Shown: positions 12,180-22,729 of the stretch, piece after piece | How the letters are laid out: each line of letters starts with the position of its first letter | Position numbering within the stretch: the first letter of the stretch is position 1 | Source of the DNA: a virus | Lineage: Duplodnaviria > Heunggongvirae > Uroviricota > Caudoviricetes | Strand: one strand, 5' to 3' | Length of the DNA stretch: 42,832 nt | IMG/VR virus record: IMGVR_UViG_2541047913_000006 | The notes under the pieces: model-generated | Told to the model about the DNA's origin: nothing | The model's input: only the letters and a program-made list of their open reading frames with translations | Databases searched by the model: none | Translations under genes and position numbers: made by a program

Positions 12180-12683
12180 TTACTGATAGTGTTTTATGTT
12201 CAGATAATGCCCGATGACCTTGTCATGCAGCTCCACCGATTTTGAGAACGACAGTGACTTCCGTCCCAGCCTTGCCAGATGTTGTCTCAGATTCAGATTA
12301 TGTCGCTCAATGCGCTGAGTGTAACGCTTGCTGATAACGTGCAGCTTTCCCTTCAGGCGTGATTCATACAGCGGCCAGCCATCCGTCATCCATACCACGA
12401 CCTCAAAGGCCGACAGCAGGCTCAGAAGACGCTCCAGTGTGGCCAGAGTGCGTTCACCGAAGACGTGCGCCACAACAGTCCTCCGTATCCTGTCATACGC
12501 GTAAAACAGCCAGCGCTGACGTGATTTAGCACCGACGTAGCCCCACTGTTCGTCCATTTCAGCGCAGACAATCACATCACTGCCCGGTTGTATGCGCGAG
12601 GTTACCGACTGCGGCCTGAGTTTTTTAAGTGACGTAAAACCGTGTTGAGGCCAACGCCCATAATGCGTGCACTGGCGCGACAT
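12180..12683 (-). CDS. insB: IS1 transposase InsB (167 aa)
   Basis: [64 protein letters not shown]... matches IS1 InsB. Confidence 0.9.
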
Positions 12684-12877
12684 CCGACGCCATTCATGGC
12701 CATATCAATGATTTTCTGGTGCGTACCGGGCTGAGAGGCGGTGTAAGTGAACTGTAGTTGCCATGTTTTACGGCAATGAGAGCAGAGATAGCGCTGATGT
12801 CCGGCAGTGCTTTTGCCGTTACGCACCACGCCTTCAGTAGCGGAGCAGGAAGGACATCTGATGGAAATGGAAGCCAC
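12602..12877 (-). CDS. insA: IS1 InsA (91 aa)
   Basis: [68 protein letters not shown]... matches IS1 InsA. Confidence 0.9.
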
Positions 12878-15316: not shown

Positions 15317-16183
15317 CTAAGCGAGGTTCTTGTTTTCAAATTGTTCCGGACTGAGGCCGCCACACCAACTGTGCCGCCGCCACCGATTGTAATCACATTC
15401 GATATAATTAAACACCGTTGCCCGCATTATTTCCCGGCTGATAAAGTGTTCTCCATGGATACATTCCACTTTCAGCGAATGAAAGAAGCTTTCCACGCAG
15501 GCATTATCGTAGCAGCAACCTTTTGCGCTCATACTTCCACGCAGATTATGCCGCTTCAGTTGCGCCTGATAATCTGCTGAACAGTACTGGCCTCCACGGT
15601 CCGTGTGAACGATAACGTTCCGGGGCCTCTTACGCCGCCACAGCGCCATCTGCAGGGCATCGCAGGCCAGTTGCGCCGTCATGCGTGGCGACATTGACCA
15701 GCCAATAACGGCACGTGACCACAGGTCAATGACCACTGCCAGATACAGCCAGCCTTCATCTGTACGTAAGTACGTGATGTCTCCTGCCCACTTCTGGTTC
15801 GGGCCACTGGCGTAAAAATCCTGCTCCAACAGATTTTCTGACACAGGCAGGCCGTGTGCGCGGTAGCTGACCGGGCTGAACTTCCGGGAGGCCTTTGCCC
15901 TCAGTCCCTGACGGCGCAGGCTTGCCGCCACGGTTTTTACGTTAAAGGGGTAACCCTGAGCACGCAGTTCATCCGTCAGGCGTGGGGCACCGTAACGCTG
16001 TTTTGACCGGGTAAAAGCCGCGAGGACAACGCTGTCGCAGTGTTGGCGGAACTGCTGACGCGTGCTTATCCTTGTCCGCCGCTGACACCACGTATACCAG
16101 CCGCTGCGGGCCACCCGGAGCACGCGGCACATTGCTTTGATGCTGAACTCAGCCTGATGTTTTTCAATAAAGACATACTTCAT
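15317..16183 (-). CDS. insF: IS3 transposase OrfB (InsF, 288 aa)
   Basis: DDE integrase-type transposase, [32 protein letters not shown]...; matches IS3 InsF. Confidence 0.9.
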
Positions 16184-16479
16184 TTCAGGCGCTTCGCGAA
16201 GTATGTCGCGGCCTTTTGGAGGATAGCCAGCTCTTCATCCCGTTCTGCCAGCTGGCGTTTGAGACGTGCAATCTCGGTAGACATCTCCAGTTCACGTTCA
16301 GAAGACGTCTGCTGATTTTGCTGTTTACTGCGCCAGTTGTAGAGTTGTGATTCATACAGGCTGAGTTCACGGGCTGCGGCAGTAACACCGATGCGTTCAG
16401 CAAGCTTCAGGGCTTCACTGCGAAATTCAGGCGAATGCTGTTTACGGGGTTTTTTACTGGTTGATACTGTTTTTGTCAT
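16180..16479 (-). CDS. insE: IS3 OrfA (InsE, 99 aa)
   Basis: [32 protein letters not shown]...; HTH; overlaps insF as expected for -1 frameshift fusion. Confidence 0.85.
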
Positions 16480-16544
16480 GTGAGTCACCTCTGACTGAGA
16501 GTTTACTCACTTAGCCGCGTGTCCACTATTGCTGGGTAAGATCA

Positions 16545-18442: not shown

Positions 18443-19237
18443 ATGAGCGAGAAATTAAAGATAGTCTATCGCCCATTACAAGAATTGTCACCGTATGCGC
18501 ACAACGCCAGGACGCACAGTACTGAGCAGGTGGCACAACTGGTAGAAAGTATTAAGCAATTCGGCTGGACTAATCCGGTGCTGATTGACGAAAAGGGCGA
18601 AATTATTGCGGGTCACGGTCGTGTTATGGCGGCTGAAATGCTCAAAATGGATTCTGTTCCGGTCATTGTTCTGTCTGGCCTGACGGATGAGCAGAAAAAG
18701 GCGTACCGCCTGGCAGATAATCGCCTGCCGATGAATGCTGGCTGGGATGAAGATCTGTTGCGGATGGAGCTGTCGGACCTAATCAATGCTGATTTTGATG
18801 TCTCCCTGACAGGCTTCATCCCGACAGAAATTGATGAACTGTTGACGGATGTTTTGCCCGGTACAGGAAATGAGGAGGAGCCGTATACGACGAAAATTGA
18901 TACGCCTGTTTATGAGCCGTCGGGCGGTAAACCGGATATCAGTGAACTGTACGACGATACGAAAACTCAGGAGCTGATCAGCCGGATACGTTCGGCGTCC
19001 CTTGATCCTGATATTGAGAAATTCCTCCTGTGTGCGGCAGAACGTCACACAGTGTTTAATTTCAGCAGAATTGCGGACTATTACGCTCATGCCCCCGCTG
19101 AAATTCAGTGCCTTTTCGAGGAGTCGGCGCTGGTGATCATTGATTATCAGCAGGCTATTGAAAATGGATTTGTCCGAATGACGCAGCGCATGGTGGAGAT
19201 CATGCATGGCGGGGAGGAGGAGGAGGAATATGCGTGA
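18443..19237 (+). CDS. ParB-like nuclease domain protein (full-length YnaK-like)
   Basis: 264 aa; ParB/Srx N-terminal domain with GHGR motif (GEIIAGHGRVMAA); acidic C-terminal tail GGEEEEEYA; position after trkG as ynaK in K-12 Rac. Confidence 0.7.
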   Translation: MSEKLKIVYRPLQELSPYAHNARTHSTEQVAQLVESIKQFGWTNPVLIDEKGEIIAGHGRVMAAEMLKMDSVPVIVLSGLTDEQKKAYRLADNRLPMNAGWDEDLLRMELSDLINADFDVSLTGFIPTEIDELLTDVLPGTGNEEEPYTTKIDTPVYEPSGGKPDISELYDDTKTQELISRIRSASLDPDIEKFLLCAAERHTVFNFSRIADYYAHAPAEIQCLFEESALVIIDYQQAIENGFVRMTQRMVEIMHGGEEEEEYA

Positions 19238-20162
19238 TGATTTTTGCGCCTTTATTCTGACTCACGGGCGACCGGACAAAGTTCTGACTTACCGGACGTT
19301 GCGTCGTGCTGGCTATACCGGGAAAATTTTTATCGTTGTTGATGATGAAGATAAGACACGGCATCAGTACATGGCTGAATTTGGTGAACAGGTGCTGGTA
19401 TTTTCCAAAGCCGATATTGCCAGTCGTTTTGACGAAGCCGATAATTTTGGTGATCGCCGCTCAATTTTTTACGCCCGTAATGCCTGTTTCGACCTGGCAA
19501 AACTGGTCGGGTGTAAATACTTCATTCAGCTCGATGATGATTATCACGAGTTCCAGTTTCGGGTGGATCGCAACTATGACCAGGCCTATTTCCCGATAAG
19601 GAAACTGGATGCGATCCTTTCTGAAATGCTGGCGTATTACGAATCAATACCCGCGCTTTCCATCGCTATGTCGCAGGGCGGGGATTTTCTTGGTGACAAT
19701 GGCGGCCATGCTTCGTGGGTGAAACGCAAGGCAATGAACAGCTTTATCTGTTCGGTTGATCGACCGTTCTCATTCATGGGGCGCATTAACGAGGATGTGA
19801 ATACGTACACGAATCTCGGTCGCTGTGGTGAATTGTTTATGACGATCGGTGCTGTCCAGTTAGGGCAGAAACAGACGCAGAAAAACAGCGGCGGAATGAC
19901 CGAGCTGTATCTGGATTCCGGAACCTACGTTAAAAGTTTTTACTCCGTCATGTATTCGCCGTCGTGCGTAAAAATCTCACTGATGGGTGCCAGCCATAAA
20001 CGCATTCACCATCAGGTCACCTGGAACAACGCTGCAGTAAAAATCCTTCACGAAAAATACAGGAAGAAGACACCCTGCATATCAATGGGGGTGACAAATG
20101 ATTCCGTATTCGAAAGTCGAGTCTCTGGCAGCGTGCCGGATGACTGCACAACAAATCGCTGA
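19230..20162 (+). CDS. Hypothetical protein, possible GT-A-like fold (full-length YdaY-like)
   Basis: Start at ATG 19230 with RBS GGAGGAGG, 8-nt overlap with the ParB-like gene; N-terminal FILTHGRPDKVLTYRTL...IFIVVDDEDK and DxD-like motif IQLDDDYHEF; function not established. Confidence 0.5.
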   Translation: MRDDFCAFILTHGRPDKVLTYRTLRRAGYTGKIFIVVDDEDKTRHQYMAEFGEQVLVFSKADIASRFDEADNFGDRRSIFYARNACFDLAKLVGCKYFIQLDDDYHEFQFRVDRNYDQAYFPIRKLDAILSEMLAYYESIPALSIAMSQGGDFLGDNGGHASWVKRKAMNSFICSVDRPFSFMGRINEDVNTYTNLGRCGELFMTIGAVQLGQKQTQKNSGGMTELYLDSGTYVKSFYSVMYSPSCVKISLMGASHKRIHHQVTWNNAAVKILHEKYRKKTPCISMGVTNDSVFESRVSGSVPDDCTTNR

Positions 20163-20349
20163 CGTTCTGGATGTTGATCTGAACCGACTGAAAGAAAATC
20201 GGGAAGCAATGACAGATTTTTATGCGGCCATCCGTAAGGGCAGAGCGAAAGGTGAAGCCGAGTTACGAGCGGCATTGTTTAAGCTTGCCAGAAAAGGGGA
20301 TGCCTTTGCTCTGCGCGAACTACTCAGGGTGGATAAAAATCAGGACTAA
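20098..20349 (+). CDS. Small HTH DNA-binding protein (packaging-associated?)
   Basis: 83 aa; RBS GGGGGTGA 5 nt upstream; MTAQQIADVLDVDLNRLKENREAM helix-turn-helix-like; immediately precedes terminase genes. Confidence 0.45.
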   Translation: MIPYSKVESLAACRMTAQQIADVLDVDLNRLKENREAMTDFYAAIRKGRAKGEAELRAALFKLARKGDAFALRELLRVDKNQD

Positions 20350-20352
20350 CTG

Positions 20353-21447
20353 ATGAGCAGACCGGACTGGGGGGCGTTGCAGCAGGAGTATATTGCTGAA
20401 TACACCCGCTCCGGTATATCTCCGGTGGCATGGTGTGAAGCAAGGGGACTGAACTACGCAACAGCCCGTCGTTACATCAAAAAAACTCCGAAAAATGCGC
20501 AGAAAGAAATGCGCAAAACTGCGCAAAAAAGTGCGCGAAAAAAAACTGCGCAGACTGCGCAAAGGCAGAACGGAAAATCTCAGAAAAAAAAGGCTGTATC
20601 CGATGCACTCCTGATTGAGGGGGACACGGAAGAAATTTCGTTCTGCCCCGATGAATTCGGTATTTCTGACCAGCAGGCAAAATTCGCCATGTTGGTTGCT
20701 CAGGGGAAAAAGCCGACAGAGGCATACCGACTGGCTGGTTATGAGGGGCAAGGTGCGACAGCTAACAGCAACGCCAGCCGTATGCTTAGAAATGCCAGGG
20801 TTTATCGTGCTATCAGCTACTTCCGCAATCAGTACCAGAAACGCTATACCGCAGACCTGGATTTACTGGTGAGCCAGTTGATGGCCATTGTCCAGGCCGA
20901 CCCCAATCAGTTGGCACAATTTCGCCGTGTTAACTGCCGTTATTGCTGGGGCGAGAATCATCTCTACCAGTGGCGTGATATTGCAGAATTCGATAAGGCT
21001 GCGGCACAGGCCTCCAGAGATGGTAAACCCGAGCCGGAATATGGAGGCCTCGGCTTTGTTGATAACGCCATACCCAATCCTGATTGCCCGAAGTGCTGCG
21101 GTGAGGGAACAGGACAGCTTTATATGGCTGATACCACACTGCTTGATGGGGATGCGCGGCAATTATATGCAGGGTCAAAGCTCGGAAAATACGGTGTTGA
21201 GATCCTGCTGGAGGATAAGGCTGCCGCCCGGCGTGAATTGTTGCGTTTGCTTTCTGCTGGCGGGGCATTATGTGCAGATAAGCGGCTACAGGAACTGGAA
21301 ATTGAACGGCGCAGAATAGAGAACCAGAAGCTGCGCAAAGAGATCGAAACGGTGGAGGATAATGAACATCCCCAGCCTGTGGCGATCAATATTAATGTGG
21401 TTGATGCCAGATTAAGGAGTGATGAAGATGATCTCTCCGACGCTTAA
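20353..21447 (+). CDS. Putative terminase small subunit (HTH N-terminus, basic repeat region, zinc-ribbon Cys cluster)
   Basis: 364 aa; position directly upstream of large terminase with overlap; CxxC...CPKCC cluster; internal TGCGCA-rich DNA repeats at 20495-20560. Confidence 0.55.
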   Translation: MSRPDWGALQQEYIAEYTRSGISPVAWCEARGLNYATARRYIKKTPKNAQKEMRKTAQKSARKKTAQTAQRQNGKSQKKKAVSDALLIEGDTEEISFCPDEFGISDQQAKFAMLVAQGKKPTEAYRLAGYEGQGATANSNASRMLRNARVYRAISYFRNQYQKRYTADLDLLVSQLMAIVQADPNQLAQFRRVNCRYCWGENHLYQWRDIAEFDKAAAQASRDGKPEPEYGGLGFVDNAIPNPDCPKCCGEGTGQLYMADTTLLDGDARQLYAGSKLGKYGVEILLEDKAAARRELLRLLSAGGALCADKRLQELEIERRRIENQKLRKEIETVEDNEHPQPVAININVVDARLRSDEDDLSDA

Positions 21448-22729
21448 TGTGCCTCAGGCGCGATTTCTTTCAATGCCCCATAAATTTAAAGCCTATATTG
21501 CTGGTTTTGGCTCGGGCAAAACATGGGTTGGGTGTGGCGGCATATGCAAGGGGATTTGGGAGCATCCAGGTATAAATCAGGGATATTTTGCGCCAACGTA
21601 TCCCCAAATTCGCGATATTTTTTACCCTACAGTGGAAGAAGTTGCTGCTGACTGGGGATTGAACGTAAAAATTAATGAGGGAAATAAAGAGGTTCACTTT
21701 TATTACGGACGCCAGTATCGGGGAACCACTATCTGCAGATCGATGGAGAAGCCACAAACGATCGTCGGTTTCAAAATTGGTAATGCGCTGGTGGATGAAC
21801 TGGACATTTTGCCGAAGGAAAAAGCCAGAACGGCGTGGCGCAAGATAATTGCGCGTATGCGTTATAAGATTGATGGACTTCGCAACGGTATTGACGTTAC
21901 AACCACGCCGGAAGGATTCAAATTTGTCTACGAGCAGTTTGTTAAAGCCGTGCGTGAAAAAACAGAGCTGGCCTCACTGTATGGTCTGGTGCAGGCATCT
22001 ACTTTCGATAATGAAAAGAACCTGCCAGCAGATTACATTCCTTCACTTCTTGAATCATACCCTCCAGAGCTGATTAAAGCCTATCTTCTAGGACGGTTTA
22101 CTAACCTGACAAGTGGTACTGTTTACCATCAGTTTGACCGGAAACTGAATAATTGCGAAGAAGTGGAGCAGCCAGGGGAGCCGATTTATATTGGGATGGA
22201 TTTTAACGTTGGAAAGATGGCGGGAATCGTCCATGTGCTGCGTTTGGGGCTTCCATGTGCGGTAACTGAAATCATCAATGCCTACGATACGCCGGATATG
22301 ATCCGCCTCATTAAAGAACGCTTCTGGCTGTATGACGGGCATGATTACCGGAAAGTGAGGGAGATTTATATTTATCCAGATGCTTCCGGAGATTCCAGAA
22401 AATCAAGTAACGCAAGTACGACGGATATAGCCCAGCTTAAGCAGGCAGGTTTTAACGTTGTGGTGAACAGCTCGAACCCGCCAGTAAAAGATCGCGTTAA
22501 CTCAATGAATGCAATGTTCTGCAATGCCAATGGTGAGCGTCGCTATAAAGTTAATGTGAAGCGTTGTCCGGTATATGCCGAATCTCTGGAGCAACAGGTC
22601 TGGGATGATAAGGGGGAGCCTGATAAAAAATCTGGCAATGATCACCCGAATGATGCCGGAGGTTATTTCATCGTTAAGCAATTCCCTATTGTCAAACCGA
22701 CCGGAAGAGTCACATCACTTCGGATTTAA
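21419..22729 (+). CDS. Terminase large subunit
   Basis: 436 aa; Walker A-like IAGFGSGKTW near N-terminus; C-terminal nuclease-like region; followed by portal. Confidence 0.85.
   Translation: MMKMISPTLNVPQARFLSMPHKFKAYIAGFGSGKTWVGCGGICKGIWEHPGINQGYFAPTYPQIRDIFYPTVEEVAADWGLNVKINEGNKEVHFYYGRQYRGTTICRSMEKPQTIVGFKIGNALVDELDILPKEKARTAWRKIIARMRYKIDGLRNGIDVTTTPEGFKFVYEQFVKAVREKTELASLYGLVQASTFDNEKNLPADYIPSLLESYPPELIKAYLLGRFTNLTSGTVYHQFDRKLNNCEEVEQPGEPIYIGMDFNVGKMAGIVHVLRLGLPCAVTEIINAYDTPDMIRLIKERFWLYDGHDYRKVREIYIYPDASGDSRKSSNASTTDIAQLKQAGFNVVVNSSNPPVKDRVNSMNAMFCNANGERRYKVNVKRCPVYAESLEQQVWDDKGEPDKKSGNDHPNDAGGYFIVKQFPIVKPTGRVTSLRI

Follow-up and report, generated by a model that had tools for sequence, protein, structure and literature searches.

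In the 42,832-nucleotide (nt) stretch of viral DNA analysed here as a whole (IMG/VR record IMGVR_UViG_2541047913_000006, hereafter the window), a full-length Rac-like lambdoid prophage of Escherichia coli, the small terminase gene terS carries a cluster of TGCGCA hexamers. I propose, with a probability of roughly 0.7, that this array provides the recognition element of a packaging site of pac type, located in the DNA that encodes a flexible linker of the small terminase subunit (TerS). The PacA-like N-terminal domain (N-domain) of TerS, encoded just upstream of the linker, most likely binds the array to start genome packaging. The initial annotation of this DNA had put the cluster forward as a candidate packaging recognition site, and comparative evidence of several kinds now supports that proposal: the hexamers are constrained at the DNA level, they are retained in distant terS genes, they covary with the third helix of the N-domain (Table 1), the N-domain is remotely homologous to PacA of phage P1, and P1 itself carries a hexamer array in pacA. 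The principle is known from P1, but the hexamer, the architecture and the covariation of helix and hexamer across TerS families appear to be new; the open-access literature contained no description of the TGCGCA array, nor a mapping of pac or of DNA ends for this TerS family.

The hexamer array and its constraint

The array spans positions 20495-20563 (Table 2), with the hexamers themselves at 20496-20561 (terS nt 144-209), and begins 12 nt past the ..RRYIKK codons. The six copies of (A/C)TGCGCA(A/G)A described initially hold for five of them, whereas the fourth, GTGCGCGAA, has two deviating positions. The hexamers start at gene nt 144, 158, 168, 180, 195 and 204, and the encoded peptide, ...KNAQKEMRKTAQKSARKKTAQTAQR..., belongs to a linker that is indeed basic, as had been noted, and of low complexity. 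Over the whole window TGCGCA is not enriched (20 observed vs. 19.1 expected), and five of these 20 lie in the array. Six TGCGCR motifs within 66 base pairs (bp) compare with a maximum of three in 200 first-order Markov simulations, and a Poisson estimate for the density of the array amounts to about 2e-9 per site. The next TGCGCR in terS after the array is found only at gene nt 801 (21153), leaving a single cluster in the window, and GATC is absent from 20480-20600.

In order to separate codon from peptide, amino acids (aa) 41-100 of the linker were kept and their synonymous codons resampled 20,000 times. For the window terS, 0.31 TGCGCA are expected and 5 are observed, a number reached by none of the 20,000 resamples (P < 5e-5). 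The terS genes used for comparison were chosen by protein similarity and not by motif, and they show the same excess: 0.57 expected vs. 5 observed in Serratia fonticola, 0.53 vs. 6 in Klebsiella phage ST16-OXA48phi5.1, 0.40 vs. 5 in Escherichia phage GER2 and 0.24 vs. 3 in Escherichia phage PHB10. The positive control, pacA of P1 with its TGATCA/G hexamers, gave 2.45 vs. 7 (P = 4e-4). The hexamers also occur in different codon phases. Five copies in the window are read as xxT-GCG-CAx (N/T/S-A-Q/R) and the copy at 20510 as xTG-CGC-Axx (M-R-K), the phases over 66 distinct arrays are distributed 275:76:25, and the hexamers of the Klebsiella phage terS use all three (TAQ, TAQ, PAQ, LRT, TAQ, CAE).

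Comparison of the segment across homologous terminase genes, the check suggested initially, turned out in favour of a packaging site, as the hexamers are kept in distant terS at 43-54% protein identity while the linker diverges. In S. fonticola, at 54% protein identity, TGCGCA is found at gene nt 144, 158, 168, 182 and 204, and terS genes from Serratia, Klebsiella and Shiga toxin (Stx)-like phages have 5-6 TGCGCA at the position matching the window array. The sequence common to these genes is restricted to the first ~45 residues (M-x-K-P-D-W-G-x-L-Q ... G-I-S-P-x-D-W-C ... G-L-N-Y-x-T-A-R-R-Y-I-K-K), and the C-terminal parts of array-bearing TerS belong to different families (phrog_51/Terminase_2; phrog_370). 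A subset of the Klebsiella-type terS has a second cluster 210-270 nt downstream. Taken together, these comparisons indicate that the hexamers are constrained as DNA and not as peptide, and the basic peptide of the linker appears to be for the most part a passenger. Residues 43-93 of TerS are predicted to be disordered, with a predicted local distance difference test score (pLDDT) below 50 in an AlphaFold2 (AF2) model, so that the linker peptide would be free to carry a DNA signal. The initial annotation had left open whether the repeat acts at the DNA level, the protein level, or both; codon phases, resampling, distant terS and helix-3 covariation speak for the DNA level. In Rac-SA53 the N-domain was lost through gene fusion and three of the five remaining hexamers are mutated, which is suggestive of relaxed constraint, although a single lineage with only 6 substitutions amounts to an anecdote.

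Some further observations concern the array and its immediate surroundings. Just past it, the heptamer A_AAA_AAG at 20586-20592 lies in frame and constitutes a slippery sequence of dnaX type for -1 shifts; the -1 frame stops at 20616-20618, which would result in an 88-aa product of N-domain and linker. Alleles with changes immediately upstream (GAAAAAAAG, ATAAAAAAG) retain the heptamer, which may merely reflect the Lys-rich sequence. In the variants L073, P0008 and P0016, single-base indels in A-runs truncate terS or cause the array to be read in another frame (..KCAERNAQNCAKKCAKK..), after which the original frame resumes. Such variants could be artefacts of sequencing or pseudogenes, or else reflect genuine slippage. 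In E. coli CUWW10 (L006, 3001-3860) a copy of the insertion sequence IS1 interrupts terS at nt 145, precisely at hexamer 1, and the rest of the head-gene region is lost. A supposed mosaic joint at terS nt 145 in H52 was rejected, as it reflects an IS1 insertion or deletion. Contig ends were likewise rejected as a proxy for DNA ends: several loci start near the array, but their boundaries are those of storage chunks, neither of contigs nor of virion DNA.

Association of the hexamer with the N-domain and its third helix

IMG/VR was scanned motif-first for groups of three closely spaced TGCGCA, which yielded at least 120 loci. In 71 of these 120 listed loci, the cluster lies in an open reading frame (ORF) directly after the N-domain (hidden Markov model (HMM) E 1e-20 to 1e-32), and these 71 comprise 64 distinct N-termini joined to several different C-terminal families. 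Of the other listed loci, one is truncated, and in one the cluster belongs to a TerS whose helix-turn-helix is of another kind. What is left comprises intergenic arrays, unrelated tandem repeats in coding sequence and chance matches in GC-rich DNA. The 66 distinct arrays contain 4-10 copies each, of which the first usually follows the ..RYIK codon by 8 nt. Their spacings cluster at 7, 9, 12, 14 and 16 bp, and they share the extended consensus AAAC-TGCGCA-RAA, in which the A-rich flanks occur on one strand only. In all of 190 representative clusters the N-domain is found at the very N-terminus, and it occurs only on small terminases.

A terS from Erwinia sp. OLFS4 (L005) separates the N-domain from the core. 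Its Terminase_2 core is 43% identical to that of the window, its N-domain is different, and at the equivalent linker position (700-790) it has GGGGCA three times, followed by an inverted TGCCCC. With the same core but a different N-domain and a different motif, this gene implies that the motif follows the N-domain and not the core.

In order to compare hexamer and helix, I counted hexamers within 200 nt after helix 3 in unique arrays (Table 1). The helix-3 types ARRY and ARRH, pooled, have 488 TGCGCA vs. a single TGCGAA-type hexamer, and AKRY is accompanied by TGCGAA/TTCGCA. Klebsiella phage RothD has AKRY with TGCGAA and, outside helix 3, a domain 89% identical to a TGCGCA-type domain. AKRY and TGCGAA also occur together in the Yersinia group, as well as in a lineage whose identity to all others is only ~50%. 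The N-domain of phage Min27, with helix 3 ARTR, is 81% identical to a TGCGCA-type domain. Across these lineages the hexamer appears to track the third helix of the N-domain, in a relation that is strong but not absolute.

Table 1. Hexamers found with each type of helix 3
Helix 3	Arrays	TGCGCA	TGCGAA/TTCGCA	YGATCA
ARRY	82	457	1	6
ARRH	5	31	0	0
AKRY	5	0	32	0
ARTR (933W/Min27 type)	3	4	0	12
AKRH	2	6	5	0

Two observations made in these scans stand apart. In unrelated viral contigs that lack a PacA-like domain in the vicinity, intergenic arrays of 3-5 TGCGCA are present (L153 ~10006, L198 ~1892, L208 ~3711, L175 ~276, L182 ~10242 and L097 ~4593), which may serve other proteins as operators or iterons. 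Furthermore, the representative proteins P0142, P0196, P0226, P0228, P0253 and P0268 each contain 4-7 separate N-domain-like stretches, which are internal and not N-terminal.

Comparison with P1 and other systems, and competing explanations

PacA of P1 corresponds to phrog_1711 (E = 4e-202). The N-terminal 75-95 residues of the window TerS match this family with E = 2.4e-4, as do TerS of Min27, GER2, ST16-OXA48phi5.1 and a Yersinia phage (E from 3e-3 to 2e-5, the window included), and PacA in turn matches phrog_370. When the 43-residue N-domain profile, without the linker, was compared with PacA residues 1-60 by hhalign, positions 3-40 were aligned with a probability of 92.6% (P = 4.5e-7), while 30 shuffled controls reached at most 9.8%. 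The match is limited to the N-terminal ~40 residues, the remainder being Terminase_2 and not PacA-like. In the P1 record (NC_005856), pac cleavage is located at pacA nt 276-285, beside a site for integration host factor (IHF) and between TGATCA/G hexamers at gene nt 194, 201, 213 and 228 on one side and 324, 336 and 347 on the other, spaced 7-15 bp. The P1 hexamers are binding elements of PacA/PacB (PMC10028697, summarising Sternberg & Coulby 1987; Skorupski et al. 1994), and their synonymous mutation lowers the P1 titre about 9-fold (PMC10028697). The window resembles P1 in that the gene for the recognition subunit harbours the presumed cis site, just past the codons of an N-terminal helix-turn-helix, in that hexanucleotides are repeated above synonymous expectation in both pacA and the window terS, and in that the remotely homologous N-domains have the helix motif LNxxTARRY in common. 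It differs from P1 in the rest of TerS, which is a Terminase_2 core and not the PacA C-terminal region, and in the large subunit (TerL), which is of Terminase_6 type and not PacB.

Other systems share parts of this design. In SPP1 and SF6, the 5' portion of the terS region overlaps with pac, which involves repeated boxes (pacL/pacR). The G1P proteins of these phages have the Terminase_2 core that scores above the Pfam threshold in the window TerS, but the short SPP1-type proteins lack the additional N-terminal domain and the long linker, and the repeats in the window track the additional domain and not the Terminase_2 core, as the Erwinia comparison showed. TerS of the SPP1/SF6 type are described as pac-targeting, with helix-turn-helix motifs displayed on a ring (PMC4737164). 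TerS of the 933W/Min27-type Stx phages (phrog_370) has an N-domain of the same family, ~40% identical, in the same layout. In Min27 (L094; also L397 and L417), terS nt 141-182 carry four YGATCAT hexamers, at gene nt 141, 153, 165 and 177, which are exactly 12 nt apart, encode the peptide IDHEIDHKTDHEIDH, and each contain a Dam GATC site, very much as in P1. These phages differ from the window in the GATC-containing hexamer, in helix 3 (ARTRIK), and in a C-terminal part unrelated to Terminase_2. A scan for GATCAT found only the 933W-type lineage, and 108 records of Stx2a-converting phages matched the N-terminal query. This likeness suggests a Dam-sensitive pac site in Stx phages.

A similar arrangement outside packaging is the lambda ori, whose iterons lie in the part of gene O that encodes the inter-domain linker, and are bound by the N-terminal DNA-binding domain of O. 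As in the window, an array of binding sites is located in the linker-encoding part of the binder's own gene, so that specificity and site are inherited together, whereas lambda ori serves replication initiation and not packaging, with unrelated proteins and 19-bp iterons. The pac coverage peak of prophage Gally in E. coli LF82 (PMC9928086) proved uninformative, as its TerS has 140 aa and carries neither the N-domain nor the array.

Several observations weigh against a pac site read by a PacA-like domain. BLASTP of the window TerS against PacA gave E = 0.11, with LNxxTARRY in common, and PacA was missed by a plain hmmsearch based on the N-domain HMM, so the homology is remote. The hexamer is TGCGCA and not TGATCA/G, and without a Dam GATC the window array is presumably not under methylation control; it forms one cluster of six, where P1 has 4+3 copies flanking the cut; and no match to the IHF consensus, with up to one mismatch, is present within the window terS, in contrast to the IHF site of P1. 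The spacing in the window is irregular (9-15 bp) and shows no helical phasing. Close E. coli alleles have 4-7 copies, differing by indels of 9 or 12 nt, and the commonest one has only four intact copies and two decayed ones (hexamer 2 changed to TGTGCA, plus a TGCACA); because of this variation, single hexamers seem dispensable, as in P1. The covariation sample is partly motif-selected, and a perfect rule linking R or K to the fifth base of the hexamer was rejected, as the AKRH loci L456 and L216 carry mixed TGCGCA/TGCGAA. L456, which has mostly TGCGCA, was an exception encountered in a representative set assembled protein-first, so that the rule between helix 3 and hexamer is strong and not absolute; AKRH may represent a permissive or transitional state of specificity. 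The AF2 model, built from a shallow alignment, is of low confidence (mean pLDDT 48.7) and was used for helix and linker boundaries only. Lastly, with transposases of IS1 (12180-12877) and of the IS3 family (rve, 15317-16488, in the lysis-gene region) inserted in the prophage, this copy may be defective or non-inducible.

Alternatively, the N-domain sites could act as an operator-like brake on transcription or translation of terS-terL, with the start of packaging specified elsewhere. Covariation and linkage indicate co-evolution of domain and site but not the purpose of binding, and a site within the binder's own gene would suit feedback control. However, in P1 it is the homologous array that constitutes pac, and the domain is found on small terminases only, at their N-terminus. 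I therefore consider autoregulation alone unlikely, although it could coexist with a role in packaging.

A purely protein-level repeat would imply that a basic K/T/A/Q linker arose by tandem duplication, with the hexamers as a by-product of copied codons. Copy number changes in units of 9 or 12 nt, and Tandem Repeats Finder detects an imperfect tandem array, albeit only an irregular one that contains indels, with matches of 74-82% at periods of 12, 24 and 36. Moreover, 73% of the hexamer copies are in the single phase xxT-GCG-CAx, encoding x-A-Q, a further point against a signal in DNA alone; because of it, some protein-level preference or shared ancestry by duplication exists too. As the entire explanation this is nevertheless very unlikely, since the hexamer is also kept in the other two phases (L/M/V-R-x or C-A), counts exceed the resampling expectation ~10-fold in independent lineages, the hexamers outlast the divergence of the linker peptide, and they change with helix 3 of the adjoining domain.

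It is most unlikely that the array is bound by another factor, such as the ParB-like protein encoded upstream (at a parS-like site) or the product of an 83-aa ORF, or that it is a decoy or target of restriction-modification. Genes for a ParB_N protein and a glycosyltransferase and the small ORF are indeed found directly upstream, and TGCGCA is palindromic and the recognition site of FspI-type enzymes. However, Klebsiella, Yersinia and GER2 phages have the array and no annotated gene of either upstream type immediately before terS, the motif tracks the TerS helix and not the neighbouring genes, and the asymmetric flanks (AAAC...RAA) are unlike a simple palindromic target. A slippage-prone contingency tract that varies linker length or switches terS on and off, for which the polymorphic copy number (4-7), the A-run indel variants and the A_AAA_AAG heptamer could be cited, is hardly credible, as it leaves the conservation of the exact hexamer across genera and the helix-3 covariation unexplained, and the variants may be sequencing errors or pseudogenes.

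Prophage setting, proposed mechanism and implications

The prophage contains integrase, recT/recE, racC, kil, sieB, trkG and a ynaK-like ParB gene, followed by the head-tail module. The placement of the repeats in a small terminase gene was confirmed: TerS matches Terminase_2 (PF03592) over aa 122-316 with 36.1 bits (Pfam cut-off 26.1) and, over its full length, phrog_51 'terminase small subunit' with E = 6e-75, and the genes for TerL and portal are next. Among 5426 complete E. coli genomes, 896 have this terS, for which the RefSeq annotation in E. coli is terminase small subunit. It lies directly upstream of terL, which it overlaps; portal and Mu-F-like genes follow, and in a closely related annotated phage record the coat protein genes come next. 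The nearest annotated relatives of TerL are from Jersey-like (Salmonella) and Dhillonvirus siphophages (40-44% identity, with ~44% for the Jersey-like ones), which presumably package by headful. No sequence relative of TerL was found in the PDB, and comparison of the window TerS with solved TerS structures gave nothing better than E = 0.13. The AF2 model places helices of the N-domain at residues 6-20, 24-30 and 35-38, and residues 99-170 have a pLDDT of 77-87. The Terminase_2 core has a Cys-x2-Cys ... Cys-x2-Cys insertion.

Table 2. Positions of the features in the window
Feature	Position	Strand	Remarks
terS, small terminase gene	20353..21447	+	364 aa; Pfam Terminase_2 and phrog_51
PacA-like helix-turn-helix domain, coding region	20353..20484	+	N-terminal, aa 1-44, ...GLNYATARRYIKK; AF2 helices, phrog_1711, hhalign
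Basic low-complexity linker, coding region	20485..20640	+	~aa 45-96, bears the hexamer array; pLDDT and homologue comparison
Hexamer 1, TGCGCA	20496..20501	+	AAT GCG CAG, N-A-Q
Hexamer 2, TGCGCA	20510..20515	+	other codon phase, A ATG CGC AAA, M-R-K
Hexamer 3, TGCGCA	20520..20525	+	ACT GCG CAA, T-A-Q
Hexamer 4, variant TGCGCG	20532..20537	+	AGT GCG CGA, S-A-R; TGCGCA in most other alleles
Hexamer 5, TGCGCA	20547..20552	+	ACT GCG CAG, T-A-Q
Hexamer 6, TGCGCA	20556..20561	+	ACT GCG CAA, T-A-Q; TGCACA in several alleles
Terminase_2 core of TerS	20716..21300	+	Pfam aa 122-316; second helix-turn-helix-like region, oligomerisation helices
terL, large terminase	21419..22729	+	Terminase_6N E = 3.5e-32; Terminase_6C E = 7.8e-11

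Upstream of the packaging genes, the 83-aa ORF at 20098-20349, just 5' of terS, matches positions 145-218 of 319 in phrog_309 'terminase small subunit' (E = 8e-23) and has no Pfam match; its product may be an accessory packaging or DNA-binding protein. Directly upstream are also the genes for the ParB_N-domain protein (18443-19237) and for a TET-associated glycosyltransferase (TAGT; 19206-20162, Pfam E = 6e-35), and the synteny of TAGT and terS is also observed in Serratia (L004). Neither a TET/JBP dioxygenase nor a DNA methyltransferase turned up among the scanned ORFs. In the Actinobacillus pleuropneumoniae phage vB_Apl-pPE4, a segment of 592 nt (20979-21570) is 91% identical to the middle of the E. 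coli terS, an unexpected host for so close a match.

If the array is a packaging site, the following mechanism can be envisaged. In TerS, the PacA-like three-helix domain (aa 1-44) would be tethered by the ~50-residue basic linker to the oligomeric core of Terminase_2 type, and each N-domain of one oligomer would read one (AAAC)TGCGCA(RAA) hexamer via helix 3 (..TARRYIK). With 4-10 hexamers 7-16 bp apart, this would result in multivalent, cooperative capture of the segment on phage DNA that is concatemeric or replicated in situ. TerL, presumably both nuclease and motor, would then be recruited by the array-bound TerS and cut nearby, after which headful packaging would proceed. Binding, cut site, packaging direction and stoichiometry I infer from sequence.

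As the N-domain and the array lie within ~210 bp, the mosaicism of phage genomes allows both to be transferred jointly, as a single cassette of specificity. It is possible, at slightly worse than even odds, that they form a portable ~210-bp cassette with a readable code (ARRY:TGCGCA, AKRY:TGCGAA, ARTR:YGATCA, with AKRH permissive), and that this cassette became joined to three or more small-terminase cores unrelated to one another, namely the PacA C-terminal region, Terminase_2 and phrog_370. Packaging specificity could in that case be re-programmed by one residue and one base per repeat. The covariation of residue and base bears on the sequence specificity of small terminases, which is still debated, and opens a cheap and direct experiment. 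In phage-based DNA delivery, the array would define what to put on a plasmid, or what to take from a helper.

Experimental pac sites are available for a handful of phages only, and they are usually not predictable from sequence. The present observations offer a predictor that uses sequence only, namely a PacA-like N-domain with 4-10 copies of a hexamer specific to the lineage immediately after it, and a GATC-hexamer version of the same design is present in the Stx-converting phages of 933W/Min27 type. The start point of packaging determines which host genes are moved by lateral transduction. If the cassette is real, pac sites and the starts of packaging and lateral transduction would become predictable from sequence for a large class of enterobacterial prophages, including the Rac-like elements in ~1/6 of complete E. 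coli genomes as well as the Stx2a phages.

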